DNA of 25,533 bases from Candidatus Zixiibacteriota bacterium (GCA_041742355.1 JBGSIV010000126.1:1-25533), one strand, 5' to 3'. Numbered from the stretch's first letter, positions 1 to 23,189 are shown. Notes: generated by a model from the letters alone, not told the origin. Program-made: numbers and translations.

Positions 1-593
1 TCCGCATCGTCCCAACCCCACGAAAACTGATCGTACTTCCCCGTCATCTCGTAGTACTGCTGCGTACGCGTATCGGGCAGGTGATGAGTGATCTCCGGGT
101 ATTCCAAGGGGTCGGCGTCATCGTCGTCGGCCAGCCCGTAGGTCCAGTTGAGGAAATTGCTGTAGCGGTCCTCAGACCAGTGCGTCCGGTTGAACAACTC
201 GAACTCGTCGGTCATCTCTGAGCCGTCGGCATGCCACTTGGCGTGCAGCCCCCACGATGCCGCTTCGACCCCGAGGAATATGAACGGCTTGATCCGGCTG
301 CCGTAGTACCATTGCCCCGCTCCCGGTACCAGAAGCGAGAGGAAGAACGCTTTGGCGGGTGACTTCGTCTTCACCTCGGCCCGTTCGTCCGCATCGGATG
401 AAAACGCCTCGTTCTCGGCCAGCTGGGCGAGATCCCCTTCGGACGCCGTCACCAGTCCATAGCGAACCTGCACGCCCGCGTCGTCGAACGGCGACCGCAC
501 CAGGTTCGCGCCCCTGGCCGGCGCATGCAGCAGAAGGCTGACCGCAATCAAACTACAGGCACAACTCCATCGGCTATACTGGCGCATCGTCAT
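1..593 (-). CDS. Hypothetical exported/membrane protein, DUF5683-like; 3' end runs off the window
   Basis: Not in the ORF track; translated by hand. ATG at 593 with GAGGAG RBS, 8 nt after the stop of the M6 gene. Reads MTMRQYSRWSCACSLIAVSLLLHAPARG...KTKSPAKAFFLSLLVPGAGQWYYGSRIKPFIFLGVE...QQYYEMTGKYDQFSWGWDDA, open to the window edge. KSPxxAxxLSxxxPGxGQxY is typical of DUF5683/TM2-like proteins. Confidence 0.8.
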   Translation of the reverse strand, partial: MTMRQYSRWSCACSLIAVSLLLHAPARGANLVRSPFDDAGVQVRYGLVTASEGDLAQLAENEAFSSDADERAEVKTKSPAKAFFLSLLVPGAGQWYYGSRIKPFIFLGVEAASWGLHAKWHADGSEMTDEFELFNRTHWSEDRYSNFLNWTYGLADDDDADPLEYPEITHHLPDTRTQQYYEMTGKYDQFSWGWDDA

Positions 594-601
594 GGGGCTC
601 C

Positions 602-3600
602 TCATCTGAGTATGGCTATATCGGTGAAGGCCGTTTCCGTCTCACCGCCAAAATCAACTTCTATCCGGCAGCGGTACACCCCCGGGGTGACATCGCCGCA
701 GTTCCATTCCAGCTCGTTGTTTACACCGCCCGCAGTCGGGCCGGGCATTTCGGCTATTTCGACACCCGACAGGTCGAACACCGTCAGCGTCACCCGGGCC
801 GCTTCGAGGCCGAGGAAATACCGGATCGTCGTCCGCCCTTCAGTCACCGGGTTGGGGTAGTTGAAGTACTGCTTTTTGTCGAACGCCTGCGCATACTGCG
901 CCGGCGCGCCCAGGCGGCGCTCGTCAAACACAAGGGTTCCCCCCGCGTCCGCTCCGGCCATCGGCCAGAAGTTGCGGGCCGTGTCGGCATCCGTTTCCCA
1001 CAGGTAGAACCAGCCGTCCGCGCCGATATAGCCGAGCTTGCCGCCCAGCGAATCGTTCACGAACAGCGCCGATCCGGCGGTGAACTCTCCGCCCGAGAGC
1101 GGGAAACCGTGGGCCAACTCGTCACCGTAGGCATAGACATTCCCGATCTCTGTCGGAACAACGACTTCGGGCCGGCCTCCCCGGCGAATGTCCGCCACCA
1201 CGGGCGCAGCCGTCACGTCCGCATCGGGGTAGCGATCATCGAGCCGCTTCGGATAGTCGGCGACGAGGGTGAAGTTCCGGTCGAATGCGACCAGATGGTT
1301 CTCGCTCCCCACCAAGATCTCCGGGTACCCGTCGCCGTTGATATCCGCCGCGATCGGATTCGTCGTCACCGGTATCGCGCGCGCCATTTTGAACGACGCA
1401 TCGTCGGCAACTACTTCCAGCGGCGCCTGTGCCCGGAGGCGGATCCCCTTGCCGTAATCGGTGAATCCGATGATATCCTGCGTGCCGTCCCGATCGACAT
1501 CGACCAGTATAGGCCCGAATCGGTACTGATCATCGTTGACCACGACGGAATCGTAGTCACCGTCGCTTCCGATGGAGTACCAAACGGTGTGGTCATCGGA
1601 GCCGCCCACGAGTATCATTCGGTCGCCGAATGCGCAAATACCGTGGTACTGCTCCTGCCCGAACGACCCGATCATTAAGGCACCGGAAGCGAGGTCATCA
1701 GCCCAATACACATTCCCGGCGCTCGTGAGCACCCACAAATCACTATTCAGGAACATGGCGATAGGATCCCCGACGGTCGTGAAGATCAGCCCCGAGTCGG
1801 CCAGACCATTCGCGATATCTCCCGCAAAATCCGTAGCCCGGCGCACCTCGACCACTCCTCCGGCGCGCCCTGCGGCCACCACCATTGGCCCTTCGCTGTC
1901 GCCGAAATCTCCAGCGACCGGACCGCACAGCAGTATCGAGTCCCCCAATCCAAACATGGCCAGCGGGTATATTTGGCCGTCATGCACAGTCGCGTACGAC
2001 GTATCGAGAAAGATCGAATCCGGCGCTCCCCAGACTTTCGCGAGGAAGTTCTCCCCTTCGGTTGTGAACGCGAGTATCCGCTTCCCTGACGCCACGATTA
2101 TCTCATCTGTGCCGTCCCGATCCAAATCGGCCGCGATCGGCGCCAGCGGCACCGAGGGCGTCCCGACTCGCACCGGGAAATTGTCCACCAGTCCTTCCGT
2201 CTCGACATCGAACCGCACCAGCGTGTCATGCACGATGATCGTTGTTCCCGGCGTATCCGCCTCGCGGGTGATACCGGTGATCCGCACGTGGGTGTTGTTG
2301 CCGGTGTTGTCGATCGACGGCGGGTTGGTGTTCGGCGTGAAGGACGTATTCCGATCATCCCGGTACATATCCTCCGGCCGGCCGTATCCGGCGCGGTAGT
2401 TGCCGCCGAAATTGATGATGCCGTCCCCTTCGATCAGCGTGATAAACTTGCGGTCCTTGTCCCACTGGAGCTGGTTGTCGCTGAAATTGTCTCCCCCATC
2501 CCCGTTGAAATCCATCGCCGCGACACTTTCGTCGACGAGGTAAATCAGCACGCCGGATCCCGGCATGAGGGCATCGTACTCGCGCGTGAACTCGCCGGTC
2601 TCGGTGTCGACCGGTCCCTGGAGCACGTTGACCACCGAATCAAGTCGCTGCCCCGTTTCATGTCCGGTGTAGCTGATGACCCGGTTCTCCAGCAGGTAGT
2701 ACTCATGCTCGCTGATCGGCACGCGCGCCACCTTGATTCCCTCGGTGGCCATCTGCGCCGCGGCCAGTTGAATATCCGTCCCCCGGCGAAAATCATGCAC
2801 TTCGGCAAACCCGAGATACGCCCGGGACCATGCGCACGGAAAGAGCGGAATCGTCCCGAACACCGATCCCACCGGGAAACCGAAATCGATTCCGGTCCCG
2901 AAACCGTTGTTGTCCATCAGCGCGAAATCGCCGAGCTGGCTCATGAAGGTCCGGGTGCTGTAGAGATCCACCAGTCCAAGCTGGTGGCCGAATTCATGCG
3001 CGAGCACCGCGTTGAGCGCGGTCGCCCGGTTGTCCTGGCTGGCTGTTTCCGGCATCATCAGCGCCGTCTTCACAAAGTTCGCACCGCCATCCACCGGGAG
3101 CGAATCACCGAACGCGATGAACCCGGTGAACAGGTCGTTGCAGGTCTCCGGAAAACCGATGTCGTTCTGACGGTCGCTCCCCGCATGAAACAGGAAGATC
3201 GACTGATAGGCACCGAAATCGATCTCCGGCGACACCGTATCGGCGAGCTGGATGCAGTCAATGAAGTACTGCTCGAGCCCCGCCACTACCTCGTTGAAAT
3301 CGCACCGCCCGTAGTGGTTCATCGGGTGCGGCAACTCGTACACCGAGTCCTCCACGGGAGGATAGATGTCCCAGGTCAGCGTGATCTTCCCATCCGAGAC
3401 AGTCTCCCAGTACCGACTGAGCGCACGCATGTGGGCATCGAAGTAGGCGGTGTTCCGGGGGGGCGAGTCGATCCAGTGCCCGACCGAATCGAAGTACGCC
3501 GCCGCCGATGCGGAGTCCGCTTCCGGATCGACCAGCACCATGCGCCCGCGCCCCGTCGTGTTGGGGTCGTCCGTCGCCTCGTACTGGAAGTTGTACCGGA

Positions 3601-3865
3601 GCACCAGGCAGTGGATAGTGTCCTGCGCGTCGGCCGCCAGCGCCTGTTTGGGTAGCGACCACGGGTTGGCCCGCTCCAGCCCCAGGTCGATGACCGACCC
3701 CGGGTGCGGCGTGAGGCACCGGTGGTGAACGAAGTTTTCGCCCGGTCCGGTTTCCCCCGGATGTTGAATTCCCTTGATCCGCAGAACCCCGTCACCGGCG
3801 GCGATTACCACCGCCGGGAGGAGTAGTGCCAGTGCGATCATCAGACATACATGTCGTTGTAACAC
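602..3865 (-). CDS. Secreted M6-family (immune inhibitor A-like) zinc metalloprotease with FG-GAP-like repeats and a T9SS type A-like C-terminal sorting domain
   Basis: Signal peptide; zinc motif HEFGHQLGLVDLY; M6 motifs FHAG, ALMD and EYYLLENR; FG-GAP-like ADLDRDGTDEI, DVDRDGTQDI and ADINGDGYPEI; C-terminal YPNP...VTLTVFDLSG...PGVYRCRI. Confidence 0.85.
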   Translation of the reverse strand: MLQRHVCLMIALALLLPAVVIAAGDGVLRIKGIQHPGETGPGENFVHHRCLTPHPGSVIDLGLERANPWSLPKQALAADAQDTIHCLVLRYNFQYEATDDPNTTGRGRMVLVDPEADSASAAAYFDSVGHWIDSPPRNTAYFDAHMRALSRYWETVSDGKITLTWDIYPPVEDSVYELPHPMNHYGRCDFNEVVAGLEQYFIDCIQLADTVSPEIDFGAYQSIFLFHAGSDRQNDIGFPETCNDLFTGFIAFGDSLPVDGGANFVKTALMMPETASQDNRATALNAVLAHEFGHQLGLVDLYSTRTFMSQLGDFALMDNNGFGTGIDFGFPVGSVFGTIPLFPCAWSRAYLGFAEVHDFRRGTDIQLAAAQMATEGIKVARVPISEHEYYLLENRVISYTGHETGQRLDSVVNVLQGPVDTETGEFTREYDALMPGSGVLIYLVDESVAAMDFNGDGGDNFSDNQLQWDKDRKFITLIEGDGIINFGGNYRAGYGRPEDMYRDDRNTSFTPNTNPPSIDNTGNNTHVRITGITREADTPGTTIIVHDTLVRFDVETEGLVDNFPVRVGTPSVPLAPIAADLDRDGTDEIIVASGKRILAFTTEGENFLAKVWGAPDSIFLDTSYATVHDGQIYPLAMFGLGDSILLCGPVAGDFGDSEGPMVVAAGRAGGVVEVRRATDFAGDIANGLADSGLIFTTVGDPIAMFLNSDLWVLTSAGNVYWADDLASGALMIGSFGQEQYHGICAFGDRMILVGGSDDHTVWYSIGSDGDYDSVVVNDDQYRFGPILVDVDRDGTQDIIGFTDYGKGIRLRAQAPLEVVADDASFKMARAIPVTTNPIAADINGDGYPEILVGSENHLVAFDRNFTLVADYPKRLDDRYPDADVTAAPVVADIRRGGRPEVVVPTEIGNVYAYGDELAHGFPLSGGEFTAGSALFVNDSLGGKLGYIGADGWFYLWETDADTARNFWPMAGADAGGTLVFDERRLGAPAQYAQAFDKKQYFNYPNPVTEGRTTIRYFLGLEAARVTLTVFDLSGVEIAEMPGPTAGGVNNELEWNCGDVTPGVYRCRIEVDFGGETETAFTDIAILR

Positions 3866-3889: not shown

Positions 3890-6658
3890 TTACGGCATGA
3901 TCGAGAGCGAGAAGCGCAGCGTATTCGCCAGCGCCACATCCTTGCTGTTCGGAATATACGAGAAGTCGGCCCGCATCCAGTCGAGCGGATGGAGCCCGGC
4001 GCCGAGCGTGAACGTCTTAACTTTGCCTTCCTGGTCGTAGACGTACCCGAAGCGGCCGGCGATCAGATCGGCGTAAGTCAGTTCCACACCGCCGTTGAAG
4101 ATCGCTTCCTGCAGTTCTCCGCCAACATCGCCGAAATCGACATCGACGAGGATCTTGTTCATCTCGGCCGTCACCAGCAGCGTCGAGTAGTTCGTCTGGA
4201 ACAACTTGTAGGCGAACCCGACCGCAAGGTTTCGCGGCAGAGGATCCGACTGCGCCGGATCGATGTACGCCATGTCCCAGCCGAGGTTGGTGATCGCCAG
4301 GCCAAGGTTCAGCCGCGGCGACCACTGGTACAGGAGCCCGAGATCGAACGCAAACCCGGTCGAGGTTCCCTCGCCCTGTTCGTCACCGGCGCCGAGATCG
4401 GACAGGCGCGAGTAAATCAGCTTCGCGCCGATACCCGTTTTCAGCTTCTGCGTCAGCGAAAAGCCGAACGCCCCGGTAACCGCGAGGTCAAAGGACTCGA
4501 ACGTACTGATCGGATCGCTGCTCGTCTGCCCCGTTCGCGTGATCTCACCGTACGTCAGGTACGTCACGTTGATCCCGCCGGTGCCGATATCGCCGATCTG
4601 GAACACGGCCGAGGCGAAGTCATAGTACATATCGCTGGCCAGTTCCGGCAGCCAGTTTACGTGCATGAGGGAGATTTCGGTCCGGCCGTTGGCCTTGACG
4701 ACGATTTCCTCGTCGCTCGCCAGCCAGAGTTCTCCTTCTATCGCCCGGACGAAGATAGTGTTGGCTTCACCCATGCCCCGTTCGTTCACCCGCGAGAGAC
4801 GGCCTTCTTCGAGCACCCGGAGGCCTTCGCTCGTGGCGAAAAACACCCGGCCGCCGTCGACGGTCACCTGGTTGATCGGCGCAGCCACCGCATTCTCGTA
4901 GACGAGAACGGTCCGGCCGGAATCCAGCGTCTCCGTCTCCTGCAGGCCATTGACCGCCATGAGGGCATTCTGGTACTGCTGGCGGCCCTTCGTGTCGGAC
5001 GACCGGAAGCGCTTGTCTACAAGGCTGGCGACCGTCTCGCCCGCACCTGCCTCGCGCACTTTCCAACCCGGCATCTTCCACTTGTAGCCGTCAAAGTACA
5101 GAAGACCGTACTCGGTCCCCACAAACAGCTCGTCCTGCCGCACGACCACGGAATTCACATACCCCTTGATCTCCACCGCGAACGGCAGATACAGCACATC
5201 GCCGGGGGGAAGGTTCGACCAATCGACATCGCCGGACGGACGCGGCGGCATGGTCGCTGTCTCTGCGGGAGTCTCGGTCGCGGCCGGTTCCACTGCGGCG
5301 GCACTGTCGGCCGCCACGGTCGTCGAATCCGTTACCTGGGCCGTAGTATCAGCCGGCTTCTCTTCCGCCGGCGGAGCCGCGGCAACCTGCACCGGTGCGA
5401 TCGGTCCGGACGGGTTGAGCCGCTTGATCTCCTCGACAAACGCCTGCTTTTCCGCCGCAGTGCCATAGATCGCGAACCGCTCCGCAATGGCTTCCGGCGT
5501 GTCGCCGACCGCGATCGTGTACGGACGGCTGTCGGTCCACCGCGTCTTATTGTAGAAGTACAACTTGCCGTCGACAACGGCATACAGCTTCGAGCCGCCG
5601 TCGGCCCCAATCGCCGCCACCGCACCCGCCGGCAAACTGCCGGTAGTGTCAACCGAGGTGATATCGCGACCGCCGAACATCACCATACCCTTGGCTGTCC
5701 CGACATAGAACAGCGCGCCGCCCGCATAGAGCGAACGGATGTCGTTCGAGGGAAGCCCTTCCGCCTCGGTAAATGTCCGCCAGCTCCGGCCGTCATAGGT
5801 GAACAACCCGTCTGAGGTTCCCACCACCAGAAGCTTGTCCCTCGAGGAGATCGCCGTCGGCTGGCCATCGAACACCACCGTGTAGGGAATCATCACTTCT
5901 TCCGGGATGAAGCGCATCCTGGCCCGCTCAATCGCGACCCCGATCTTGTCGATTTCGCCCGTCTCAAGCGTGCCGTCCTTGAGGCCGTCGGCAAGTCCCT
6001 TACGCGCTTCCGCGACATTCTCCCAGCGCACCCGGGCATCCGTGTACGCCACCATGAGGGAATCCAGCCGTTCGCTGAGGAAGGGCCGATCGCGGTAGGT
6101 CTCAGGAACCACCGCGAGGATGCTGTCACGAAGCTGGCCAAGATCCTCGTAGGACATCGCGGCGTTGGCCCGCGCCACCCGCGCGACCATCTGGTCGAGC
6201 ATGGCCTCATCCTGCACCTTGAAGTAACCGCTCACGATCCCGCGGATCGTCTGATCGGTACGGGTGCTGAACAGCTCACCTTCGTGCCAACGACGGCCGT
6301 CATATCGTACCAGCCCCTTGGATTCGGATATGCCCCAGATCTCGTATGAATCGAAATCGGATCCGCCGCCGTGCTTCACCGCCGCAATCGCCCGCAACGG
6401 GCGAATGTGGGCGGGCACCTGCGAAACCGTCCAGCCGTCGGCCAGCGGACGGGCCCCCAGGCCGGCCGGATTCCAGTGGGTGGTGGTCGCGTCGTCGGCT
6501 ACCGCCACGAACGCTTCACCCATACCGGCCGCGCGGGCGCCGGGCGCTATGCGCAGGAACAGCACCGCGGCATTGGATATCTCCGCATAGCTGTCGGCCG
6601 CAGCCGCCCCAATCAGAAAGACCGTGAGAAGAACCAAACCAAGTTTCTTCGTGATCAT
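3890..6658 (-). CDS. porV: PorV/PorQ-family outer-membrane beta-barrel protein with a large internal insertion
   Basis: N-terminal FLRIAPGARAAGMGEAFVAVADDATTTHWNPAGL and C-terminal barrel (HVNWLPELASDMYY, GAKLIYSRL, FAFDLGLLY, NLGLAITNLG, DPLPRNL, LANTLRFSL) match PorV. It lies directly downstream of porU. ATG 6658 (AGGAG 6 nt upstream) is preferred to TTG 6664. Confidence 0.8.
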   Translation of the reverse strand: MITKKLGLVLLTVFLIGAAAADSYAEISNAAVLFLRIAPGARAAGMGEAFVAVADDATTTHWNPAGLGARPLADGWTVSQVPAHIRPLRAIAAVKHGGGSDFDSYEIWGISESKGLVRYDGRRWHEGELFSTRTDQTIRGIVSGYFKVQDEAMLDQMVARVARANAAMSYEDLGQLRDSILAVVPETYRDRPFLSERLDSLMVAYTDARVRWENVAEARKGLADGLKDGTLETGEIDKIGVAIERARMRFIPEEVMIPYTVVFDGQPTAISSRDKLLVVGTSDGLFTYDGRSWRTFTEAEGLPSNDIRSLYAGGALFYVGTAKGMVMFGGRDITSVDTTGSLPAGAVAAIGADGGSKLYAVVDGKLYFYNKTRWTDSRPYTIAVGDTPEAIAERFAIYGTAAEKQAFVEEIKRLNPSGPIAPVQVAAAPPAEEKPADTTAQVTDSTTVAADSAAAVEPAATETPAETATMPPRPSGDVDWSNLPPGDVLYLPFAVEIKGYVNSVVVRQDELFVGTEYGLLYFDGYKWKMPGWKVREAGAGETVASLVDKRFRSSDTKGRQQYQNALMAVNGLQETETLDSGRTVLVYENAVAAPINQVTVDGGRVFFATSEGLRVLEEGRLSRVNERGMGEANTIFVRAIEGELWLASDEEIVVKANGRTEISLMHVNWLPELASDMYYDFASAVFQIGDIGTGGINVTYLTYGEITRTGQTSSDPISTFESFDLAVTGAFGFSLTQKLKTGIGAKLIYSRLSDLGAGDEQGEGTSTGFAFDLGLLYQWSPRLNLGLAITNLGWDMAYIDPAQSDPLPRNLAVGFAYKLFQTNYSTLLVTAEMNKILVDVDFGDVGGELQEAIFNGGVELTYADLIAGRFGYVYDQEGKVKTFTLGAGLHPLDWMRADFSYIPNSKDVALANTLRFSLSIMP

Positions 6659-6675
6659 GGACAACTCCTGTTCTA

Positions 6676-9600
6676 TCAGTTCACTAAAATGACTTTTCCA
6701 AAGGACTCGACGGCCTCGCCGCCGGCCGGGTACGCGGTGGCCTTAAAAATGTAGACCCCCGTTGCCACCCGGTCCCCGGCGTAATCGTCCCCATACCAAA
6801 TAATATCGTCATAGTAGCCGGGATCTGTGGGGTAGCGGTCAAAACTCCGGATCCGCCGGCCCGACAGGGTAAAGATCTCCAGGGACACCCGCTGGACGCC
6901 GGCGGTCAATCGATACGAAAATCGGGTGCTTTCCTGCATGGGATTGGGGTAATTCAGCAGGTCCGCAAGAACCGTGCCACCCGCCGCCACAACCTCCGCG
7001 GCAAACTCCACCGTCGAAGAATTATTGGCGTTGTCCCAGGCCTTGATCTTGAACGTATGCCGTCCCGGCTCCAGCCCCTCCAGCCGATAGTCCAACCCTC
7101 CCCGGGTGAAGTCATCCTGCTCGGCGGCATACAGGCCGGTCAGATCCACCATCTGCTCCGGGCGATCATCAATGAGCAGCGTGATCCCGTGCCCGAGCCC
7201 GCCGGCCAGGTTGATGCCCGACGAATCCGCCAATCCGATCCGCAGAACATCCTCAGCCGTCACCGTTCCCCCATCGGAGAACCCCGCGATGTTCGGAAAT
7301 CCGTAGGTGATCTCCGGTCCGGCCGAATCGGTTGTCGGCGCCACCGCTCCCGACACCGGGAGCGAGTCAACCGCCCCGATCCCGTCGGTGGCTGTAAGCT
7401 CGGCATAGGCCATGATTCGCGCCCCTGTTCCGCCGTACCCCACATCCAGCGGCGTCACAAATTCGAAGCTGAATTCGCCATTGGTAATTGTTGCGGTGCC
7501 GCGGTAAATCGTCGGGCCCGGCAACGTGTAGTTCACGGTCGAAATCACCTGGCCGCTCGTGTTGAACAGCCGGAACTGCTTCTCCCGGTTGGAGTCGTAC
7601 ACGTCGATCAGCAGCCGTCCGTCGGCGTTGCGGAGAACTCCGTCGTGGTCGACCACGCGCCCCGACACCAGGGTTCGGCCCAGCGCCATCAGGCTGTCCG
7701 GCGCCTCGTCGAACTCGACCCGCAAGTGCGGCAATCCGAGCCGCAGGAACGGGTCGCCGAAGAACAGGTAGGCCCGATCGTTGGTGTTTGGCACCGGGAT
7801 AGTCCCGCCGTTGTACTGCCGCTCCAGCTTCGCGACAAAAAACGCTTCCGCCATCGACAGGCTGTCGGCAGTCAGCAGGATATCGAATACTTTCCGATTG
7901 AACGTCGAGTTCTCCGAAGCATACACAAGGCGCATCGCCGAAATGATCGCGATCGCACCGCCGTTCGGGTATACCAGCAGTTCCTCGGCCATACCCTCGC
8001 GTGCCGGATCATCGAAGAACCCGATCGCGCAGGATGCCGCGTAGAAGAGCGGCAGGCGATCGGCGTTCTGCAAACGGGGCAGATCGGCATCGCGGTAGAA
8101 AACCCGCTCATCCGCCCACACATCGGGGTTGCCGTGGCCGATATAGTCGATAAGCAGCGTCCCTTCGTTGACACTGCGCACGATGGCATCGTTCACCGAC
8201 GGCTTCAGCCGCCCGACCCGGGGGTAATCCCAAAGGTAGATCTTCTCGCGGCGGAATGTCTGGGGAATGTGGCTCCGATCCAGCGGCTCGGCCCCGATCG
8301 CCACGTGAAACGTCTCGTTGGCGTATGTCCCGCCCCGCTCATCGTCGGCCACCAGCGTGATTTTCGAGCGCCACGGCCCGTAGGTCGCGGGGGACTCGTA
8401 GCGTCTCGTCTTCTCCACAATCGTCCCGATCTCCGCCGCCGTCCGCACCGGCCACCGTGCGATCACCATGTCGAGCCCTCGATCCGGCGGCACCGCGTAG
8501 CTGGTATCCGAGTCGACAATCCCGTAGCGCCCGAAATACACGTAGTTGTCGTCGGAGGCCGACTCGTCAAGGTCGGACGGGAGCACAAACGGCGGCACCA
8601 CGTTGCTCATCCCGGTGCGCAGATTGTCGAGATAATCGAAACTTCCGTCTCCCACCAGGAGCGCCGTGTGCGGCGCGGGCGACGGGTAGTTTTCATACGC
8701 ATATTTCAGGAAATCGCGGATCGCGGTCGGATCGTACAGGCCAAACGCAAAGTTGTCCATAATGTCGTCGACCGTAACCGTGCGAAGGTTGATCCCTCTC
8801 CCCTCCCACAGGTCGATATACTCCGCCAGCCCTGGGGCCAGCTGCTGCGACGTGATGATAATCCCGTCAATCTGCTCTCCGACGGCATAGAGATCGACCG
8901 GCGTCGTCCGCTCGATCGCTATCGGCGCAAATGCCGCCGAGGATGCTCCGAAGAAGAACCTGTTCGGCCCTGTCGGCGTCAGGTCAACGACCAGGTCGAG
9001 CGTGCCGCCTGCGCGGGTCAGACTGTCGAGCCGCACCGGGCGCCGGGGGTTATCGATACGAAGGGCCACCAGCGACTGGCCGTAGCTGTCCACAACCTCG
9101 AGGCGTGCATTGGGCAGGGTCGACCCCCCCAAGGGCAGATCAAGCGACGAACCCATGGGGACTAGTCGGCTCTGGTAGGTGAGATCGACGTAGTTCAGGT
9201 AGGGTGCGACATCCGACGCCCCCCACATGTTGAGCCTGATGTTGTTGAGCCCATCCAGGAGGTTTGTCACCGTGAACTGGCAGTAGAACTGATTCTGAGC
9301 GATCGGAACGGCCCGTTGCCCGTTGGCTGTTACTTCCATGTACCCAACCAGCGGATCGTCGAAATCCGGGTCGAATGTCCGGCCGTAGCTCCGCAGTTCG
9401 GCCGCGGTTCCACTCACATATCCCGATGCCGGAATGAACAACTGGGCCGGGGACTCCTTCGTCCAGTACCAGGAGTAGTAGTCGAGTATCTTTCCATCGT
9501 TGAACTGGCGGAGCAGGTTATCCTGCTCGACATGAACGGTCCGCCGGAATGACGTGATGGTCGTATCAGCCGGCGATGTCGGATCGACCGATTCCAAAGC

Positions 9601-10542
9601 CATCCGCACCCCCTGCCCGCCGACAGTCAGCCAGTAGACGGTGCGGTCGCTGTAGTGGTGGTTCACGAAGGTTCCGGCCGATCCCGGGGCGTGTTGCCAC
9701 CGATCCGGACCCTCGGCGAAAAACAGCACGTAGTCGGTGGCGCCGAAAGAGCCGTCGCCGCCATCCTCGACCAGCACCGCGACCTCGTCAAACGTCGGCC
9801 GGGGTGTAGTGTTGTCGTACGGCAACGGTGCCCCGCCGCCGGTGTACAGGCGCAATGTCGAGGACGCGAGCCCGTTCAGTGACAGCCCGGCTTCGGCCAA
9901 CTGGCTGCCATAAATCCGGCACAGGCCGGTCTGGTTCACCGCGACCTTGTACCATGTTCCGCCGTCGGCAAACGGCCCCGATACCGCCGCCGATTTAGGT
10001 GCCGGCGCCGCAGTGGGCCAGCTCTTGAACGCATCGAAATTCACGATCCGGGCTCCAAAGACCCGGTCAAACCATGGATCACTCGCGGTGGCCCCGGATT
10101 TCGCCCCGCCGCGGAACGTCAGCCGCACGGCGACGTTTTCGACGCACAGGCCATCCGGAGAGAGCGGGTTGATCCGCAGCGTCACCATCTGCCGCCCGCG
10201 CACCGTAAACGGCTCCGAGACTTCGACCAGCGGGCGCACCACACCGGAAATGTCTGTGGCCGCCAGGACCTTCGACGCGGCAATGCGTGAGCGCACTTCG
10301 GCGGACGTCACCTCAACCTGCGCCCCGGTCGGAATCCCGACCGTCAGCAGGGCGTGGTAACCCGACAGCGAATCAGATTCAACACTGCTGGAAAGATGCA
10401 GGGGATCAAGCGTGATTTGGAAATACAGGCCGGCGCGATCCGAGGTGATCACGGAGACTTCGTCGCTCGACGCCGCATGGGGGGCAAAGGCGAGAAGAAG
10501 GATGAAGCTCCAGAAGAGCGATGTATACAGCCGAAGGTCCAT
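6676..10542 (-). CDS. porU: T9SS sortase PorU-like C25 (gingipain-family) cysteine peptidase with C-terminal CTD
   Basis: WYKVAVNQTGL; DPTAIRDFLKY; LLVGDGSFDY; catalytic dyad motifs YIGHG and AASC; FFGDP; KAWDNANNSS; CTD LLNYPNP...ATGVYIFK...GKVILVN. ATG 10542 gives a clean signal peptide (MDLRLYTSLFWSFILLLAFAPHAASS); the track's TTG 10587 is an alternative start. Confidence 0.85.
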   Translation of the reverse strand: MDLRLYTSLFWSFILLLAFAPHAASSDEVSVITSDRAGLYFQITLDPLHLSSSVESDSLSGYHALLTVGIPTGAQVEVTSAEVRSRIAASKVLAATDISGVVRPLVEVSEPFTVRGRQMVTLRINPLSPDGLCVENVAVRLTFRGGAKSGATASDPWFDRVFGARIVNFDAFKSWPTAAPAPKSAAVSGPFADGGTWYKVAVNQTGLCRIYGSQLAEAGLSLNGLASSTLRLYTGGGAPLPYDNTTPRPTFDEVAVLVEDGGDGSFGATDYVLFFAEGPDRWQHAPGSAGTFVNHHYSDRTVYWLTVGGQGVRMALESVDPTSPADTTITSFRRTVHVEQDNLLRQFNDGKILDYYSWYWTKESPAQLFIPASGYVSGTAAELRSYGRTFDPDFDDPLVGYMEVTANGQRAVPIAQNQFYCQFTVTNLLDGLNNIRLNMWGASDVAPYLNYVDLTYQSRLVPMGSSLDLPLGGSTLPNARLEVVDSYGQSLVALRIDNPRRPVRLDSLTRAGGTLDLVVDLTPTGPNRFFFGASSAAFAPIAIERTTPVDLYAVGEQIDGIIITSQQLAPGLAEYIDLWEGRGINLRTVTVDDIMDNFAFGLYDPTAIRDFLKYAYENYPSPAPHTALLVGDGSFDYLDNLRTGMSNVVPPFVLPSDLDESASDDNYVYFGRYGIVDSDTSYAVPPDRGLDMVIARWPVRTAAEIGTIVEKTRRYESPATYGPWRSKITLVADDERGGTYANETFHVAIGAEPLDRSHIPQTFRREKIYLWDYPRVGRLKPSVNDAIVRSVNEGTLLIDYIGHGNPDVWADERVFYRDADLPRLQNADRLPLFYAASCAIGFFDDPAREGMAEELLVYPNGGAIAIISAMRLVYASENSTFNRKVFDILLTADSLSMAEAFFVAKLERQYNGGTIPVPNTNDRAYLFFGDPFLRLGLPHLRVEFDEAPDSLMALGRTLVSGRVVDHDGVLRNADGRLLIDVYDSNREKQFRLFNTSGQVISTVNYTLPGPTIYRGTATITNGEFSFEFVTPLDVGYGGTGARIMAYAELTATDGIGAVDSLPVSGAVAPTTDSAGPEITYGFPNIAGFSDGGTVTAEDVLRIGLADSSGINLAGGLGHGITLLIDDRPEQMVDLTGLYAAEQDDFTRGGLDYRLEGLEPGRHTFKIKAWDNANNSSTVEFAAEVVAAGGTVLADLLNYPNPMQESTRFSYRLTAGVQRVSLEIFTLSGRRIRSFDRYPTDPGYYDDIIWYGDDYAGDRVATGVYIFKATAYPAGGEAVESFGKVILVN

Positions 10543-10697
10543 AGAAAACAGGCTACCGCCAAACCTGAAGACCGGTGCAGAAATCAACCGATGTCGAAAG
10601 GCTTGGACGCAAGATCACCGAATGAGAATGAGTGAACCTTAATACTTACGATAGCCGTGGTCCTATAGACATTCCTCCATGCTGTATAAATCGTTTA

Positions 10698-11527: not shown

Positions 11528-12928
11528 TCAGGCCTTGACCTCCTCCGGTGTCAGCATCGCCATATCGCAGGTGAAGTGCCGCAGGAATTTCGGTTCCCGC
11601 ACCACCTTCATACCTACCAGTTGATCCTTGCGGGCGGCGATCTTCGCCGCGGCCTCGGCGATATACTCATAGTGCGTATTGGTGTAGACGCGGCGCGGCA
11701 TCGCCATGCGGACCAGCTCTTTCGGCGCGTATACCATTTCCCCCGTCTCGGCATCGACCCCGCCGAACATGAGCGAGCCGATTTCGACCACGCGCACCCC
11801 GGCTTCGCGGTAGAACTCCACCGTCAGCGACTGTCCCGGGAAGTGCGCCGGCTTGATCTGCGGCAGAAAAGCCCCGGCGTCGATGAACACGGCGTGCCCG
11901 CCGGTCGGCTCGACAATTGGCATCCCGGCAGCCTTGATCAGCTGCCCGAAATACTCCACCTGCCCGACCCGGTAGTCGAGGTAGTCGAACTCCATGACCT
12001 CTTCCAGCCCGACCGCCAGCACCTCGAGGTCCCGGCCGGCCAGCCCGCCGTAGGTCGGGAAGCCCTCGACGATGATCATCAGCTCTGTGACCTTGCGGTA
12101 CAGCTCTTCATCGTTGAGCGTGATAAACCCGCCGATATTCGCCAGGGCGTCCTTCTTGGCCGACATCATCGCGCCATCGACGTAGCTGAACATCTCGGCG
12201 ACAATCTCCCGGATACTCCGGGTGGCGTACCCCGGCTCGTGGCGCTTGATGAAGTAGGCATTCTCGGCAAATCGCGCGCAGTCGAAGAAGAACGGCAGGT
12301 TGAATTCCCGGCACACCTCCGCCGTCGCCTTGATATTCGCCATCGACACCGGCTGCCCGCCGACCGAGTTGTTGGTGATCGTCATGATCACCATCGTGAC
12401 CCGATCCCGCCCGCGATCCTTGATGAACCGCTCCAGCCGGGGGACATCCATATTTCCCTTGAATGCCGATTTCTCGTCGGCCACTGCCTCACGGCAGGGC
12501 ATGTCGATCGGAATTCCTCCCTTGTGGAGGGTGTTCGCCCGGGTCGTGTCGAAATGGGTGTTGTTGATGATGTACTTGCCGCGCTCGCAGATGGTCGAGA
12601 ACATGAGGTTCTCGGCCGAGCGCCCCTGGTGGCACGGAATCACGAACTTCTTGCCGAAAATCTCCCGCACCGCCCGCTCGAAGCGACGGAACGAGGTCGC
12701 TCCCGCATACGACTCATCCCCCATCATCAAGGCCGCCCACTGCCGCGTGGACATCGCCGACGTCCCCGAGTCGGTCAGCAGGTCGATGTAAATATCCGCG
12801 GCGTCAATCTTGAAGATATTGTAGTTCGCCTCGACAATGCGCTTCTCGCGCTCGGGGCGGTTCAGCAGACGAACCGGTTCGACCGATTTTACCCGGTGCG
12901 GTTCGACCGGCGGACGATACTTGGCCAT
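11528..12928 (-). CDS. tnaA: Tryptophanase (PLP-dependent beta-eliminating lyase)
   Basis: IDLLTDSGT, GDESYAG, HQGR and the PLP-lysine motif MSAKKD. Specificity positions HFDTT, VEIGS and LRHFT are tryptophanase-type, not tyrosine phenol-lyase-type (YFTTT, MERG, LRFFT). AGGAG/AAGGA RBS. Confidence 0.9.
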   Translation of the reverse strand: MAKYRPPVEPHRVKSVEPVRLLNRPEREKRIVEANYNIFKIDAADIYIDLLTDSGTSAMSTRQWAALMMGDESYAGATSFRRFERAVREIFGKKFVIPCHQGRSAENLMFSTICERGKYIINNTHFDTTRANTLHKGGIPIDMPCREAVADEKSAFKGNMDVPRLERFIKDRGRDRVTMVIMTITNNSVGGQPVSMANIKATAEVCREFNLPFFFDCARFAENAYFIKRHEPGYATRSIREIVAEMFSYVDGAMMSAKKDALANIGGFITLNDEELYRKVTELMIIVEGFPTYGGLAGRDLEVLAVGLEEVMEFDYLDYRVGQVEYFGQLIKAAGMPIVEPTGGHAVFIDAGAFLPQIKPAHFPGQSLTVEFYREAGVRVVEIGSLMFGGVDAETGEMVYAPKELVRMAMPRRVYTNTHYEYIAEAAAKIAARKDQLVGMKVVREPKFLRHFTCDMAMLTPEEVKA

Positions 12929-12991
12929 TTCCTTCTCCTGTCATTTTCACGATACTACCTTGAACACAACAGCATCCTGAGAAGGCCAGCC

Positions 12992-13066
12992 TTACGGCAC
13001 CACTTTGACCCACCGATGGTGGTACTCCAACCCGAGATGAGGGGCCCAAAAACCCTGTTCTATCAT
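12992..13066 (-). CDS. Candidate TnaC-like leader peptide (24 aa, MIEQGFWAPHLGLEYHHRWVKVVP)
   Basis: ATG...CCG TAA upstream of tnaA; two Trp codons; Pro immediately before the stop. Weak RBS; starts 5 nt after the asparaginase stop. Confidence 0.35.
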   Translation of the reverse strand: MIEQGFWAPHLGLEYHHRWVKVVP

Positions 13067-13071
13067 CCCGC

Positions 13072-14094
13072 TCATACCCGTTTCAGGTTTACCTCGGCCA
13101 CGATCCGCCCGGTTACGGTGTTGCGCACGTTGCGCACCTCGGGCATCTCGTGCCGTTTCAGATAGGGAAAATCGTCGATATTCTTAATCAACCCCAGCTG
13201 CTTGAGCACCGCGACACACACCGCACCCAGCGCCCGCCAGTTGCCGTCGTGGATTTTCACGACTATCCCCAGCGGCGGGTCCGACAGCCCGATTCCCTCG
13301 ATCGATTCCGCCCCGACTTTGCAGACCAGGTTGCCCGGGAACGACCGTGCGAGGTCGAGGTCAAACCGGCCGTCGCCCGAGACCATCTCGGGGTATTCGG
13401 TCATCGCCCCTTTCACCCGGGCCAGCACCTGCATCATTTTCGAGTCGGGCGCATCGAGGTTGGCCAGCTTCTTGAAACCAAGCGCGAGGTTGTAGAGCGG
13501 CAGCGGGTAGTTGGGCGCGCTGCAGCCGTCGATTCCCACCGGCATCAGCTCGGCCGGATATTCGCACATCTGCGCCAGTGCATTTCGCACCAGTGTCTGT
13601 GTCTTCGAATTCGCATCGAGGTACTTCTCCACCGGCTCTCCCAGAAATCGCGCCAGCGCCAGAAAGCCCGAGTGTTTGCCCGAGCAGTTGTGCCGCAGCG
13701 GATCGCAATCTTCCCCGTTGCGCGGATATTCCCGGGCCTGCTCCATTTGCATCGGCCAGTGGGTGCCGCAGCGCAGATCGGCCGGACGGGAGCCGGAGCG
13801 CTCGAGGTTGCCGAATACGACATCCCGGTGGTCGTCGGTGCCGTTGTGTGACCCGCACATGATGGCGATCTGGCGGGGGGAGAAATCGTAATGATCGGCC
13901 GCGCCGGTCATGATCAGGGGCATGACCTGAAACGGCTTGATCGATGACCGCGTCATGGTCTTGAGGTACGGGTCCCCCGCATAGTGGCTCAGCTTGCCGT
14001 CGGCCCCCACGACTGCCACCGACCCGTAGTGTATCGCTTCCACCGACTCCCCCCGGTAGACCCGGGCGAGCGGGACAATCTCTGGTGTAATCAT
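13072..14094 (-). CDS. L-asparaginase, Rhizobium etli-type (Asparaginase_II / class 3)
   Basis: Motifs RSSIKPFQ, CGSH, HNCSGKHSG, DGCSAP, KVGAE and KIHDG. ATG 14094 is preferred to the track start at 14130. Confidence 0.88.
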   Translation of the reverse strand: MITPEIVPLARVYRGESVEAIHYGSVAVVGADGKLSHYAGDPYLKTMTRSSIKPFQVMPLIMTGAADHYDFSPRQIAIMCGSHNGTDDHRDVVFGNLERSGSRPADLRCGTHWPMQMEQAREYPRNGEDCDPLRHNCSGKHSGFLALARFLGEPVEKYLDANSKTQTLVRNALAQMCEYPAELMPVGIDGCSAPNYPLPLYNLALGFKKLANLDAPDSKMMQVLARVKGAMTEYPEMVSGDGRFDLDLARSFPGNLVCKVGAESIEGIGLSDPPLGIVVKIHDGNWRALGAVCVAVLKQLGLIKNIDDFPYLKRHEMPEVRNVRNTVTGRIVAEVNLKRV

Positions 14095-14136
14095 AGGGTG
14101 AAAGATACAGCGCGGTGGCGGAAATGCCACAAAATA

Positions 14137-16488
14137 TCATGGCCCGTGGATTCGGACCCGGGCGAGCGGGCCGGCATCAAACTGCAGCCCGGTCGGCTCG
14201 TGGGCGCTCCCAATGCGGAAGTCATCGGACAAACCCGTAATCCAGATCTGGTCCACCCAGCCGTCGATCGGGTTCCCCTCCGATAGAGCGTCTACCGTCA
14301 CCAGCATTTTGAAAGCGGAGTCCACTCCTTCGACCGACACTTTCGCATCGATGTACCACTCCCCGCGCTCGTCCTGAGCCGTCGTCCACTTGACCGTGTA
14401 ACTCGGCAGAGCCGTCCCATATACCCACTGCCGGAAAAACCAGCCCATGTCGGCGTGTACCTCGTTCTCGACAGCCCGCCGAAACTCGGCGGTCGTGGTC
14501 TCCCGTCCCCTGCATGCCCCGTAGAATCGCCGCAGCATCCCGTTGAAGTCCCCCTCAGCGATTCCATGCTGGATGCCGATCGGATCAAGCAACTGCTCCA
14601 ATAAGATCAGGACCAATGCCCCCTTCTTGTAGACGATGAGCTGGTAATCTCCCTCCGTCTTGCTGCTCGCGGTGCGCGGGCCAAGGATGATCGGCCCGGC
14701 CTCAGCGCCTTTCAGGCCGAAGCCGTAGTCCCGCACCGAGAAAATGTCGTCCCGCCACTCATCGAGAGTTTTCCGGGCGTTCTTCGGATCGACCAACTGC
14801 AGGTACTTCCACGCCGCGTATTGGGCGAACCCCTCCGACAGCCACTGATCGTGGTAGCTCTCATAGCCGACGGCCACGCCCCACCACTGGTGGGCGGTCT
14901 CGTGCGCTCGGAACAGGCGCTCGTTGCCCCACTGGTCGGTCTTGAACCAGGTCTGCATTCCGAGGTGCAGCAGCCCGGGGAACGCCTCGCCGTGGTACGA
15001 AAAAACCTCGGCGACTTTGAGTCGATCATACGGGGGCGGCCCGAACATCGCCGCGTACAGATCCGCCGCCCCGACCACATCCGCCGCCACCTGCTTCTCT
15101 ATGTCTTTGGTCAGGCTCTCGTACCCGAGTTTACCCCAACTGGCCCGTTCGTGGACATCCTCTGAGTAGTAGATGTCGACCGGCCCGGAGAGCTCGGTGC
15201 CGAATTCGAATTTCGTCAGAGGCCCGATGGCAAACGACACGGCCGGGGCCGGTTCCTTCACCTCCCACCGGGTCACCAACGTATCCCCGACAACCTCGCG
15301 CCCGATCTCGTCCCCCACCGCCACGAACTCGTACTCGGAGGGGGTGCGAAAGGTCATGGAGAATGTGGCGTGCTGGTGGTAGGACAGGTGCGGGTACCAT
15401 TCTCCGCCGGCGGTCACGTCGAAGACTCCCGCCAGCGCTTTGGCAATTTCCCCCTCGGAAAAGACGCGCAGCCTCAGCGTGTCGCCGCCGCTGATTGCTT
15501 CTGGCAGGAACAGGTACAACTCCGGCTTCTGGTGGTCCTTGTCCTTGTGGCGCACGAATGGCACCCGCCTCCCGGATGCGTCGAACACGCTGTCCACCCG
15601 CAGCTCCGGGTGGAGGTAGAGCCGGGCGAGCCGGGTCGGTGCGCCGTAGGCCAGCAACGTAGCCGAGGCCTCGCCGATGAAATTCCCCTTGCGATCGATG
15701 CGGCTGTCCAGGTCGTAGTGGAGCGCAGACAGTCGCCCCCTGGGTGTGCCGTTAATCAGCTCGTACGTCTCATCGAGCCCCTCGGCGTAGCTGTTCACCA
15801 GTTCGAAGTAATCCGCTCCCGGCGCCCGGTACTCCCGCCAGAGGGCCACCTCTTCGCTCGAAAAGGGATTATAGACATACACCAACCGGTCGGTCTTCTT
15901 CGGCCGGCAGTTGATCATTAGCAACGGCTCTTCCTGCGGCTCCAGCAATGCCCGCATGATGCTGAAGACGTGGGAGTAGTTTTCATCCTTCGTGAGATCT
16001 TTGAGACGTTGCCGCCCCTCGTTGATCATCCGCCGGGGCGTCTTCTCCCCCGACCGATGGCAGCCGGCCCGGACTTGCCCGTAGATCGCACGGTCGAACA
16101 GGAGCAATGCCCCGTCGATTTCACGGTCGAGCGAGTCACTGCCGAAGAATCGCCGCAGTTGGTCCTTTTCGATGCTCACCGGCGGCTGAAATCGAATCCG
16201 CCCCTTCCCCTCATAATATGCGGCGAAGTACCGCTCCTCACCATCCAGCGCCACCGGTTCGAAGAAGGCCACGCTCCCCGCGCCCAATTCCAGGCGGCAG
16301 TCGGCGTGTTCGATCACCAGTCCGTCGGTGACCCAGACCGAGTCCCGCTGTGGTTCGCCGCGCGCCATCAGCAGCAATCCTTCACGGAGCGAGTCGGCGG
16401 AGGTCGCCGCTGTCCCCTGGACAGGTCCGGAGATCACCATAGTCAGGGCACTCACGACGAGGATGATGCAGCGGCAACAGACGTTCAT
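14137..16488 (-). CDS. Secreted M1-family (aminopeptidase N-like) gluzincin
   Basis: Signal peptide; HETAH-x18-E (HETAHQWWG...WLSEGFAQY); YKKGA; FFRQWVYG. Confidence 0.85.
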   Translation of the reverse strand: MNVCCRCIILVVSALTMVISGPVQGTAATSADSLREGLLLMARGEPQRDSVWVTDGLVIEHADCRLELGAGSVAFFEPVALDGEERYFAAYYEGKGRIRFQPPVSIEKDQLRRFFGSDSLDREIDGALLLFDRAIYGQVRAGCHRSGEKTPRRMINEGRQRLKDLTKDENYSHVFSIMRALLEPQEEPLLMINCRPKKTDRLVYVYNPFSSEEVALWREYRAPGADYFELVNSYAEGLDETYELINGTPRGRLSALHYDLDSRIDRKGNFIGEASATLLAYGAPTRLARLYLHPELRVDSVFDASGRRVPFVRHKDKDHQKPELYLFLPEAISGGDTLRLRVFSEGEIAKALAGVFDVTAGGEWYPHLSYHQHATFSMTFRTPSEYEFVAVGDEIGREVVGDTLVTRWEVKEPAPAVSFAIGPLTKFEFGTELSGPVDIYYSEDVHERASWGKLGYESLTKDIEKQVAADVVGAADLYAAMFGPPPYDRLKVAEVFSYHGEAFPGLLHLGMQTWFKTDQWGNERLFRAHETAHQWWGVAVGYESYHDQWLSEGFAQYAAWKYLQLVDPKNARKTLDEWRDDIFSVRDYGFGLKGAEAGPIILGPRTASSKTEGDYQLIVYKKGALVLILLEQLLDPIGIQHGIAEGDFNGMLRRFYGACRGRETTTAEFRRAVENEVHADMGWFFRQWVYGTALPSYTVKWTTAQDERGEWYIDAKVSVEGVDSAFKMLVTVDALSEGNPIDGWVDQIWITGLSDDFRIGSAHEPTGLQFDAGPLARVRIHGP

Positions 16489-16580
16489 CGACTACTTCCT
16501 CGGCAGTACGGGTTCACACGTTCCTCCGGGGAGGCCCGGAGAGAAACACCTCTCTTTGGGCCGGGTCGGCGGGGCGCCAT

Positions 16581-17037
16581 GGCTCCGGTGTTCCGGGGCG
16601 GAGACAAGCCCCGCCCCTACGCGGGGGAAAGGGGATTGGGTTCGTTTGTGCATCTTGCGGTTATCCTTCAAGGTCGGGTTTCTCGGGGCTTACGCCCCTC
16701 GGAACACCGACCTACGTCCAAGACCAATTGGGTTCGTTTGCGCAAATTCCCTGTTCCAGACTCTCCCTTTGTCAGGCTCCAAGGAGCCTGACCTACTGGA
16801 GGAGCATTTGTATCGGGCTGCCCGCAGCAGAGCTGCGGGTTACCTGTTCGTACACCGTGCTCAGTCTTCCTGCTCTTATCGTGAGAGCAACCCACCATAA
16901 ATGGTGGGCCACCTGAGAACCCAGAGAATCCTCTCCCACCGCAAGCGGTGGGGCACCCGGGCAGCAGAGCTGCGGGTTACTAAGTCGAGTAGTAGTGCAT
17001 TCTAGACTGCCCGCAGCAGAGCTGCGGGTTACCTGTT
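16581..17037. repeat. REP/BIME-like palindrome mosaic, copy 1
   Basis: GC-rich hairpins ending in CTAC (GTAG head on the minus strand) at 16595-16620, 16673-16715 and 16771-16796; GCAGCAGAGCTGCGGGTTAC x3 (16824, 16961, 17013); CCCACC-N-GGTGGG hairpins at 16891 and 16935. Confidence 0.85.
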
Positions 17038-17158
17038 TCAACAGGCCGTTGGGCAGGACTGACATTTCCCCATGTTCCAAAGGTAGACGTCCCTATGTTC
17101 TAAAGATAGACGGCGGACGGCCGCTAATCTACTGGAAAGAATCCCCCGAAACGCCCAA

Positions 17159-17594: not shown

Positions 17595-18767
17595 GTGAAA
17601 ACCACGCCGGACCCCATGCCTGTTCGTGCCGCCGACAGTCGAAATCTCTTCGGCCTGAGCACCCCCGGGTTGTGGTTTATGCTTTTTGCGGCCTGGACCG
17701 TCCTTGCCCTCATTCAGTCGATCCGCTCCTACTACCTGTACAATTTCGACAACGCCGGTTTCATGTCCTACGGGCAGGCGCTGGCCCTGTCGCTGACCAA
17801 CTGGTATATCTGGGCAGCGCTCAGCCCTTTCATATACCTGACGGCGACGCGTTTTGAGATCGATCGCGACAATTGGAGAAGGCGCCTCTTGGTTCATTTC
17901 CTCCTCGCTGTCGGCTTCGGCGTGGTGCGGGTCAGCCTGCACGCGTTCCTGCTTCACAACGTGCGCCACTGGTTCGAAATCCCGGTTGGCCGTTCGCTGC
18001 CGACCTTTACCGCGATGTGGTCGTATATGCTCCGGTCGGACCTTCTCCCCGACCTCATGACCTACCTGCTCATCGCGTTCGGCAGTTTCGCCCTCAGCTA
18101 CTACAGCCGACTGCGCGATGAACAGCGGCGTGTCGCGGAAGCCGAGGCCCGCCTGGCCGACGCGCGACTCGCCACACTTCGCGGTCAGCTCCAGCCGCAT
18201 TTCCTGTTCAACACCCTCAACGCCATCACCGCGCTGATTCATATCGACCCGAAAGCGGCCGACCGCATGATCGCTCGCCTCTCGGATCTCCTGCGCATGA
18301 CTCTCGACCTGGAGGATACGCCGACAACCACCCTTCGCCAGGAGCTCCAGTTTGTCGAGTGTTACCTCGAGATCCAGTTCACCCGTTTCCGCGATCGGCT
18401 TCGCACCGAGATGGCGATCCCGACCGCGCTGCTCGATGCCGAGGTGCCTCCTCTCATCCTGCAGCCGATTGTCGAGAACGCCATCCGTCACGGCATCGCT
18501 CCCCGCGCCACGCCCGGCACGGTCTACCTCTTTGCCGCCGCCGAGCATGGACGCCTCAAGCTGACGATCACCGACGATGGCGCCGGGCTCGGTCCCGGGT
18601 GGGAACAGCGTCGGTCTTCCGGACTCGGCGTGCGCAACACCCGCGACCGCCTCGCGACGCTCTATGGAACGGATCAGTCGTTCGATATCGCTACAAACGA
18701 CTGCGGCGGCGTCACGGTCACGATCACGCTCCCCCTGCGCGGCGTTGCCCCGGAGGATGGGGTATGA
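17595..18767 (+). CDS. LytS/YehU-family membrane sensor histidine kinase
   Basis: About four N-terminal TM segments; H-box QLQPHFLFNTLNAI; LQPIVENAIRHG; DDGAG; GLGVRN. Start is GTG 17595 or ATG 17616. Confidence 0.92.
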   Translation: MKTTPDPMPVRAADSRNLFGLSTPGLWFMLFAAWTVLALIQSIRSYYLYNFDNAGFMSYGQALALSLTNWYIWAALSPFIYLTATRFEIDRDNWRRRLLVHFLLAVGFGVVRVSLHAFLLHNVRHWFEIPVGRSLPTFTAMWSYMLRSDLLPDLMTYLLIAFGSFALSYYSRLRDEQRRVAEAEARLADARLATLRGQLQPHFLFNTLNAITALIHIDPKAADRMIARLSDLLRMTLDLEDTPTTTLRQELQFVECYLEIQFTRFRDRLRTEMAIPTALLDAEVPPLILQPIVENAIRHGIAPRATPGTVYLFAAAEHGRLKLTITDDGAGLGPGWEQRRSSGLGVRNTRDRLATLYGTDQSFDIATNDCGGVTVTITLPLRGVAPEDGV

Positions 18768-19531: not shown

Positions 19532-19589
19532 CCTTCTCATGCGCAGCGAGGCAGTTTCTCCTCTGGCCAAGACGCGAGTACCAATCTTG

Positions 19590-20033: not shown

Positions 20034-20071
20034 TCGGTATACCCCAAAGAGTCAAATAGCCAAGTAGTTAG

Positions 20072-22102: not shown

Positions 22103-22152
22103 GGCGCCTCCGATATCAAAACGTTTCAAAGCTATCGCAAGAGTGTGATACA

Positions 22153-23079: not shown

Positions 23080-23100
23080 CTCTCACCTCCTGATTCGGGC

Positions 23101-23128
23101 AATCTACTTCCAATTGAGAAAGTGTCAA
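23101..23128 (-). promoter_or_regulatory. Putative transposase promoter
   Basis: TTGACA inside the left IR, 16-nt spacer, TAGATT, upstream of the AGGAGG RBS. Confidence 0.55.
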
Positions 23129-23189
23129 CCGAAGTCAGAAGATTCACATGCAAGGCCGCCCCCTGCGCGACGATGCTAGTCTTCTCATG

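Follow-up and report, generated by a model that had tools for sequence, protein, structure and literature searches.

The window, a stretch of 25,533 nucleotides from a Candidatus Zixiibacteriota bacterium (GCA_041742355.1, JBGSIV010000126.1:1-25533), encodes a PorV in which the short linker between plug and barrel is taken by a module larger than the barrel itself. Current models of type IX secretion (T9SS) describe PorV as a small barrel, pulled off the SprA translocon by the GldLM/GldKN energy chain. The long form is confirmed as genuine, a PorV variant that occurs throughout the phylum and beyond it and has a periplasmic module of a propeller and LysM folds; the gene, its conservation, its orthology and its fold have been established by computation. 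With a probability of roughly 45%, the arms of this module are predicted to tether PorV to peptidoglycan.

The long porV gene

A single open frame extends from 3890 to 6664 on the minus strand, with a likely ATG start at 6658 and AGGAG 6 nt upstream of it. Residue numbering throughout is that of its product, P0002 (922 aa), whose parts and neighbouring genes are the following.

3890..6658 (-), long PorV gene, 922 aa (P0002), recognised from the open reading frame, profile matches and homologues
6584..6658 (-), signal-peptide-like N-terminus, residues 1-25, predicted from sequence; a helix in the model
6458..6583 (-), plug (hatch) of PorV/FadL type, residues 26-67, ending in NPAGL, with the highest conservation of all regions (mean 0.90)
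4679..6457 (-), whole insert, residues 68-660 (593 aa), in place of a 6-aa linker
4688..6442 (-), seven-bladed beta-propeller of Reg_prop type, residues about 73-657, strand 75-80 probably closing blade 7
5885..6280 (-), LysM-fold unit 1, residues 127-166 and 251-258, interrupted by a four-helix bundle
5909..6160 (-), four-helix bundle inside unit 1, residues 167-250
5183..5530 (-), LysM-like unit 2, residues 377-492, interrupted by a disordered loop
5219..5401 (-), this Ala/Glu/Thr/Asp-rich loop, residues about 420-480 (6-134 aa in homologues)
4898..5065 (-), LysM-like unit 3, residues 532-587
3893..4678 (-), 14-stranded PorV barrel, residues 661-922, whose long outer loops bind the cargo C-terminal domain (CTD) in the model
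6676..10587 (-), porU, the sortase gene immediately upstream (NF033707, 643 bits; cut-off 420)
602..3865 (-), M6-like metallopeptidase/FG-GAP protein with a T9SS CTD, the conserved downstream partner
3..605 (-), first of the DUF5683 genes in the operon, truncated where the contig ends; contig C4 carries the operon further

The initial annotation described a PorV split by some 590 residues immediately after NPAGL, with the barrel resuming near residue 660, and this has been borne out. The motif is encoded at nt 6472-6458, and the insert is delimited as residues 68-660 because, in the model, residue 661 (nt 4678) is the first of barrel strand 1. Its removal leaves about 335 aa, a normal size for PorV as had been stated, the frame is intact, and the four quoted propeller-blade motifs are all present in the translation. 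The PorV models NF033709 and PF19572 match P0002 in two stretches. Of 80 loci with short orthologues, 14 gave no pattern match and 66 were scored; the linker between NPAGL and strand 1 has 6 residues in 47 of these 66, as against 593 in P0002. Conservation of the insertion point in relatives had been suggested as a check, and NPAGL occupies identical columns in all 150 long homologues aligned, whose inserts measure 406-724 aa. Chimeric assembly, named in advance as what would overturn the reading, was sought in assembled contigs of other studies, none of them spanning the whole stretch. A contig of run X2 (6148-6662) bridges the junction at 6457, and contigs of X3 (4568-4941) and X4 (4595-4816) bridge that at 4685, in addition to run X1, which is possibly the source. 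Together with the intact frame and the long form in relatives, these contigs rule out a chimera or a frameshift.

Predicted structure and membrane side

The AlphaFold model of P0002 has a pLDDT of 88.8 and a pTM of 0.83, being poor only in the N-terminal leader and at residues 426-469. In it, plug and barrel superimpose on chain F of 8GL6 (Z 36.3, rmsd 3.4, 308 residues aligned), and the 14-stranded FadL-like barrel with N-terminal plug that characterises PorV is present. The flanks thus fold as one PorV around a separate propeller, which is the outcome that had been anticipated from AlphaFold and a structural search. A large grafted domain had also been proposed; the propeller is real, but three LysM-fold arms, a helical bundle and a low-complexity loop had been overlooked. 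The arms are beta-alpha-alpha-beta units placed after blades 1, 4 and 5 according to the secondary structure of the model. Since strand 75-80 apparently completes blade 7, both ends of the propeller are brought together; from general propeller geometry, the links to the barrel would lie on one face and all three units on the other. The bundle alone finds generic four-helix bundles only (Z at most 6.9) in the structural search, no Foldseek match at E<=0.001 was obtained for unit 1 together with the bundle, and the ESM Atlas gave no usable match to the insert alone. The D-S/T-hydrophobic motif is that of Bacteroidota O-glycosylation. It is enriched 2.4-fold over shuffles in the insert and stands at 0.15-fold in the barrel, counted over homologues that are not independent of each other.

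The insert had been called probably periplasmic, and the model argues strongly for the same side. Short turns and long loops alternate along the barrel, and strand 1 thus begins on the periplasmic side in the model topology. N-terminal tails of the FadL family run through the pore to the outside, according to the available text of PMC12611786. In a modelled complex, the CTD of the M6-like protein touches plug residues 28-37 and loops 669-910, no insert residue being named. The complex scored 0.65 against 0.00 for the best of three controls, a value that may reflect memory of solved PorV-CTD complexes (8GL6-like); of 157 solved pairs, 116 reach the mark used for this score, as do 2 of 215 mismatched ones. 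Runs share no fewer than 86% of their contacts, and the partner pLDDT is at least 84. These values would support binding of type A CTDs by the outer loops, and because the CTD sits on the canonical cargo face in the model, the insert would fall on the opposite side.

Orthology, operon and type IX secretion genes

The identification as PorV, already made in the initial annotation, agrees with the PF19572 matches and with the score for the PorV/PorQ family, NF033709 (233 bits; cut-off 90). The PorV equivalog NF033710 is matched in pieces with 155 bits, under its cut-off of 250, as is also the case for the short KSB1-type orthologue P0138 (243.5). Among ten family members scanned in genome G000, P0002 ranks first for this model, the others reaching at most 101 bits; P0002 is the PorV orthologue of the organism. 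At least eight further PorV-family barrels are found in G000, on contigs C216, C1, C40, C214, C88, C244, C299 and C228; two are in tandem on C88, two have long TPR-like C-terminal tails, and that on C214 is the most PorQ-like. Compared with PorV of Flavobacterium johnsoniae (8GL6/6H3I chain F) and Porphyromonas gingivalis, P0002 shares the plug and 14-stranded barrel, the adjacency to porU and, in the model, the CTD-binding outer loops. It differs in the 593-residue periplasmic module in place of about 6 residues, in its score under the equivalog cut-off (155 versus 250) and in a host without detectable GldL, GldM, GldN and PorP.

The order porU-porV-M6-like gene, followed by one or two DUF5683 genes, is found in 20/20 Zixibacteria loci. 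Outgroup loci with short PorV have the M6-like gene in 59/80 and PorU in 40/80 cases, and the same operon with short PorV is seen in KSB1, Calditrichota, Ignavibacteria, Rhodothermales and Kapabacteria. The M6-like protein (window 602-3865) keeps HExxH in 20/20 Zixibacteria homologues, its best NCBIfam model is named 'inactivated', and it is rich in D-S/T-hydrophobic motifs (13 versus 4.2 expected). In the DUF5683 pair (window 3-605; L125:15049-16787), each protein has an N-terminus resembling a signal sequence and a C-terminus resembling a strand, as well as a hydrophobic hairpin, one helix of which carries a Glu in the two copies seen. An outer-membrane-like protein of about 1100 aa with a weak SprA match (24.6 bits) ends the operon in 15/20 loci, after an NHL propeller (L125:17765-19900 with L127:3-1172; C4:2214-4265 in G000); in genome G014 its gene precedes a BamA-like gene and a MoxR/Bat cluster. 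A gene of about 1030 aa with peptidase-MA-like, PD40 propeller and barrel parts (L137:12249-15356 and equivalents) lies between the M6-like and DUF5683 genes in outgroup and Fibrobacterota loci, and is missing from this position in the 20 Zixibacteria loci.

SprA is present in 61/61 Zixibacteria genomes. GldM was found in 0/61 (positive control 11/41), GldN in 0/61 by a search without positive control, GldL in 0/3 (positive control 2/2), and PorP was not found in G000 (its positive control was detected); as remote homologues could escape such searches, these negatives mean that the proteins are not detectable. The search for GldM was likewise negative in 5/5 outgroup genomes that combine SprA with a short PorV, and in 31/31 genomes of the KSB1 phylum. 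The idea that the insert replaces a missing motor is weakened by these searches: GldM is also missing in lineages with short PorV, and lack of the motor therefore does not explain the insert.

Distribution and origin of the insert

Among 8000 candidates, 477 homologues were recognised, of which the best 120 measure 852-990 aa and, where named, are mostly from Zixibacteria. The long form, or a piece of it at a contig end, is present in all but one of 40 relatives, the exception being 81% complete; P0122, P0123 and P0130, considered as insert-free alleles, are fragments of the long form. The insert alone matches 249/251 genomes of the phylum Zixibacteria and 198/198 of those of high quality, these being insert-like matches of which the weakest were not each checked. 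A long PorV in a single reading frame is found in representatives of 19/19 families sampled. A genus-specific oddity is thus ruled out and, rather than a one-off graft, this is the standard PorV of the whole phylum and of Fibrobacterota. No RNA holder appeared among the matches listed.

A profile of eight divergent long forms retrieved 787 proteins. The 118 newly listed ones all match the Zixibacteria insert profile, 112 of them have the same junction pattern, and the four that are named belong to Fibrobacterota. In the Atlas, three insert-bearing clusters (118, 64 and 91 members) have Fibrobacterota as commonest phylum, and one insert-bearing cluster is named Chitinispirillaceae. Judged from these sequences, a homologous insert is widespread in PorV of Fibrobacterota. 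Other inserts are found at the same NPAGL site: an unrelated one of roughly 500 aa, apparently helical, in a group including a cluster named Edwardsbacteria (members P0267, P0263, P0268 and P0253), and a second one, also unrelated, of 680 aa and rich in Asp, Gly and Asn, in P0271. P0338 is a PorV extended at its C-terminus by OmpA and two SPOR domains. In a tree of the barrels only (46 rows chosen from 99, after 18 rows without a matched NPxG motif had been dropped), Zixibacteria and Fibrobacterota each form a supported clade over an unresolved backbone, and a single clade of all propeller-bearing barrels is not rejected (p-AU 0.22).

A bundle like that of the insert occurs in a protein of 135-160 aa with one predicted membrane helix, found in 14/61 KSB1-phylum genomes (E 9e-8 to 5e-4; L261:1306-1770, L262:1504-1950, L263:1492-1971). 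Its hhalign probability of 97 comes from three sequences picked by that same profile. No Pfam family scored over cut-off for this protein, and no stand-alone copy was found in G000.

Possible roles of the module

The mechanism that we consider first is a PorV tethered to the wall. The long protein, a true PorV, would carry type A cargo and anchor PorU, and its outer loops would have kept their binding of CTDs. The propeller, set into the periplasmic link that joins the plug to strand 1, would bear from one to four LysM-fold arms on its membrane-distal face; the arms would most likely bind the glycan chains of peptidoglycan, and PorV, with PorU or cargo, would be kept in place over the cell wall. 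Peptidoglycan binding and tethering are putative functions, which we infer and place first because of the likeness to LysM, the direction of the arms, their variable copy number and the precedents of PorE and the PorV-OmpA-SPOR protein. Such an arrangement would be a single-chain analogue of PorP-PorE. In the parts of the reports available, PorE has a periplasmic propeller and an OmpA-like domain with a bound peptidoglycan fragment (PMC5053529, PMC7192894), while PorP-PorE anchoring is put forward as a proposal (PMC12618676). The PorE (PG1058) and PorP/SprF shuttle resembles the long PorV in that a propeller and a peptidoglycan-binding module are tied to a carrier barrel (available text of PMC5053529, PMC7192894 and PMC12618676). 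PorE differs in being a separate lipoprotein with TPR, CRD and OmpA-like domains that serves type B cargo, whereas in P0002 the module lies inside the type A carrier, has LysM folds and is only predicted to bind the wall.

The likeness to LysM is itself uneven. Pfam LysM (PF01476) scores 14.4 bits in P0002, under the cut-off of 20.9, which counts against the tether, whereas it passes the cut-off in 4/22 unselected homologues and matches below it in 5 more, which counts in favour. It also passes in 4/4 homologues picked for a prior LysM mark, one of which scores identically to an unselected row. Units 2 and 3 are those that reach the cut-off in some homologues, and the only other open reading frame in the genome found with the unit-3 profile is an MltD-type protein with four LysM domains (E 3.5e-8), again in favour of the tether. 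Variable copy number is usual for binding modules. The number of units varies from 1 to 4 between lineages, as a tether would allow: family f15 is without unit 1 and bundle, f5, f8 and f18 duplicate both, and f10 has an extra unit. On the other hand, Fibrobacterota PorV keep unit 1 only, and Pfam LysM found no match in 8/8 Fibrobacterota-type proteins. Folded alone, unit 1 gives weak matches to 6u5b_6 of the pyocin baseplate (Z 4.9, rmsd 2.1, 53/55 residues) and to 9gtp_P of a contractile-injection baseplate (Z 5.0, rmsd 1.9); these two are the only ones across unit 1 among the structural matches listed (Z 4.9-5.0), which also speaks against the tether. The pyocin baseplate 'glue' protein has a LysM fold (available text of PMC10811340), and 6u5b_6, of 55 residues, is consistent with being this protein. 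Like LysM (PF01476) and the baseplate 'glue' folds, the units of the insert have the order beta-alpha-alpha-beta, with Pfam matches in some homologues and the weak structural match of unit 1; unlike in these, the second helix is longer, and other domains interrupt units 1 and 2.

Two further points weigh against a firm tether. In Bacteroidota, PorV has to be pulled off SprA for cargo release (available text of PMC10994853), and a firm tether to the wall would hinder this step. Moreover, SprA and PorU operate with a short, module-free PorV in many lineages, and a tether is therefore no general requirement. Alternatively, the module might be a periplasmic docking platform or handle, in which the propeller and the LysM folds would bind proteins. 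This appears possible, although we place it behind the tether; it comes second because likeness to LysM is lowest in the unit that is kept most widely, and because PorV must leave SprA in the Bacteroidota model. The partner would be the periplasmic side of SprA, an operon partner (for example the two DUF5683 proteins or the NHL propeller) or some energiser, which is compatible with wall binding, and the module would take the role that SprE/SkpA and the GldK/N hub have in Bacteroidota. The alignment of unit 1 with 6u5b_6, a putative protein-binding LysM fold, and with 9gtp_P fits this reading, as do the conservation of the helical bundle with its resemblance to the small single-pass membrane protein of KSB1 genomes, the searches negative for GldM, GldN and GldL in Zixibacteria that nevertheless have SprA, and the contact of SkpA with the periplasmic face of F. 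johnsoniae PorV (described in the available text of PMC10994853). It is opposed by the failure to find GldM in short-PorV outgroups and KSB1 genomes as well, by the loss of unit 1 and bundle in f15, and by the fact that no partner gene tracks with the insert, the operons of Zixibacteria and Fibrobacterota being different.

A periplasmic sensor or gate is unlikely. In this reading the Reg_prop propeller, like the sensors of hybrid two-component systems, would have wall fragments or sugars as ligands and would act on the plug or on the availability of PorV. The first bacterial propeller among the structural matches listed is indeed that of the hybrid two-component protein BT3049 (3v9f, Z 21.4), Reg_prop repeats are frequent and the insert is joined directly to the plug, but a Z of 21 is equalled by many unrelated WD40 propellers, there is no output domain, and the conserved operon has no regulator gene. 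We give similarly little credit to a passenger or spacer, in which a permissive loop in the periplasm would tolerate an insertion that serves stability or folding only. The same site holds 7-17 extra residues in several outgroups and receives the two unrelated large inserts of Edwardsbacteria and P0271, as would be expected of a permissive loop; the propeller-LysM insert, however, is kept in 19/19 families with a mean conservation of about 0.4-0.7 outside the loop, and across two phyla.

A surface fusion resembling PorZ, in which the propeller lies outside and delivers the lipid anchor to PorU, is highly improbable. It would account for the weak PorZ-model scores of some inserts and for the adjacency to porU. 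P0002 does share a seven-bladed Reg_prop-type propeller with PorZ and the hybrid two-component sensors (PF07494 Reg_prop; 5M11, 3V9F), but it has one propeller and not two, interrupted by LysM folds, on the periplasmic side and without CTD, and G000 has a separate full-length PorZ-like gene (C256:5577-7931); on these grounds the fusion was rejected. In addition, Fibrobacterota-type loci are without adjacent porU, the 1/34 loci that has it being Zixibacteria-type, although many of these loci are short.

The claim of the initial annotation that this architecture is undescribed stands for the searchable papers, among which none describes it (subscription journals were outside the scope, and supplements may list such proteins), but not for the databases, which already list the proteins as PorV/PorQ family. 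Among the matches listed, no paper joined 'Zixibacteria' with PorV or type IX secretion. Two phyla at least have a PorV whose periplasmic module exceeds the barrel in size, and GldM is undetectable in the Zixibacteria searched. Going beyond the tether itself, it is conceivable, though rather doubtful, that T9SS outside Bacteroidota lack the known motor and hub, that the plug-to-barrel loop is a recurrent attachment point, and that PorV of Zixibacteria and Fibrobacterota is a fixed station, anchored to the wall or coupled to an energiser, instead of a diffusing shuttle. If true, a fixed station would imply a different extraction of cargo from SprA. How such systems release their cargo may be testable because the module extends to Fibrobacterota, which have cultured members, FSU_2254 of Fibrobacter succinogenes S85 (UniProt D9S423) being a candidate.

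Other features of the window

Beyond porU, the window encodes a beta-eliminating lyase and an asparaginase II (11528-14130), an M1 peptidase (14137-16488) and a LytS/LytTR-type pair (17595-19531). The intergenic parts 16300-17100 and 19540-19800 give repeated translations, which suggests short REP-like DNA repeats. Two genes, for a Fib_succ_major protein of two domains (20072-22267) and for an integrase-core transposase (22153-23079), lie in the stretch 19500-23500, which is lower in GC (0.50-0.58). Finally, an FG-GAP/ASPIC-UnbV protein with TSP3 and a dockerin-like tail is encoded at 23532-25502.
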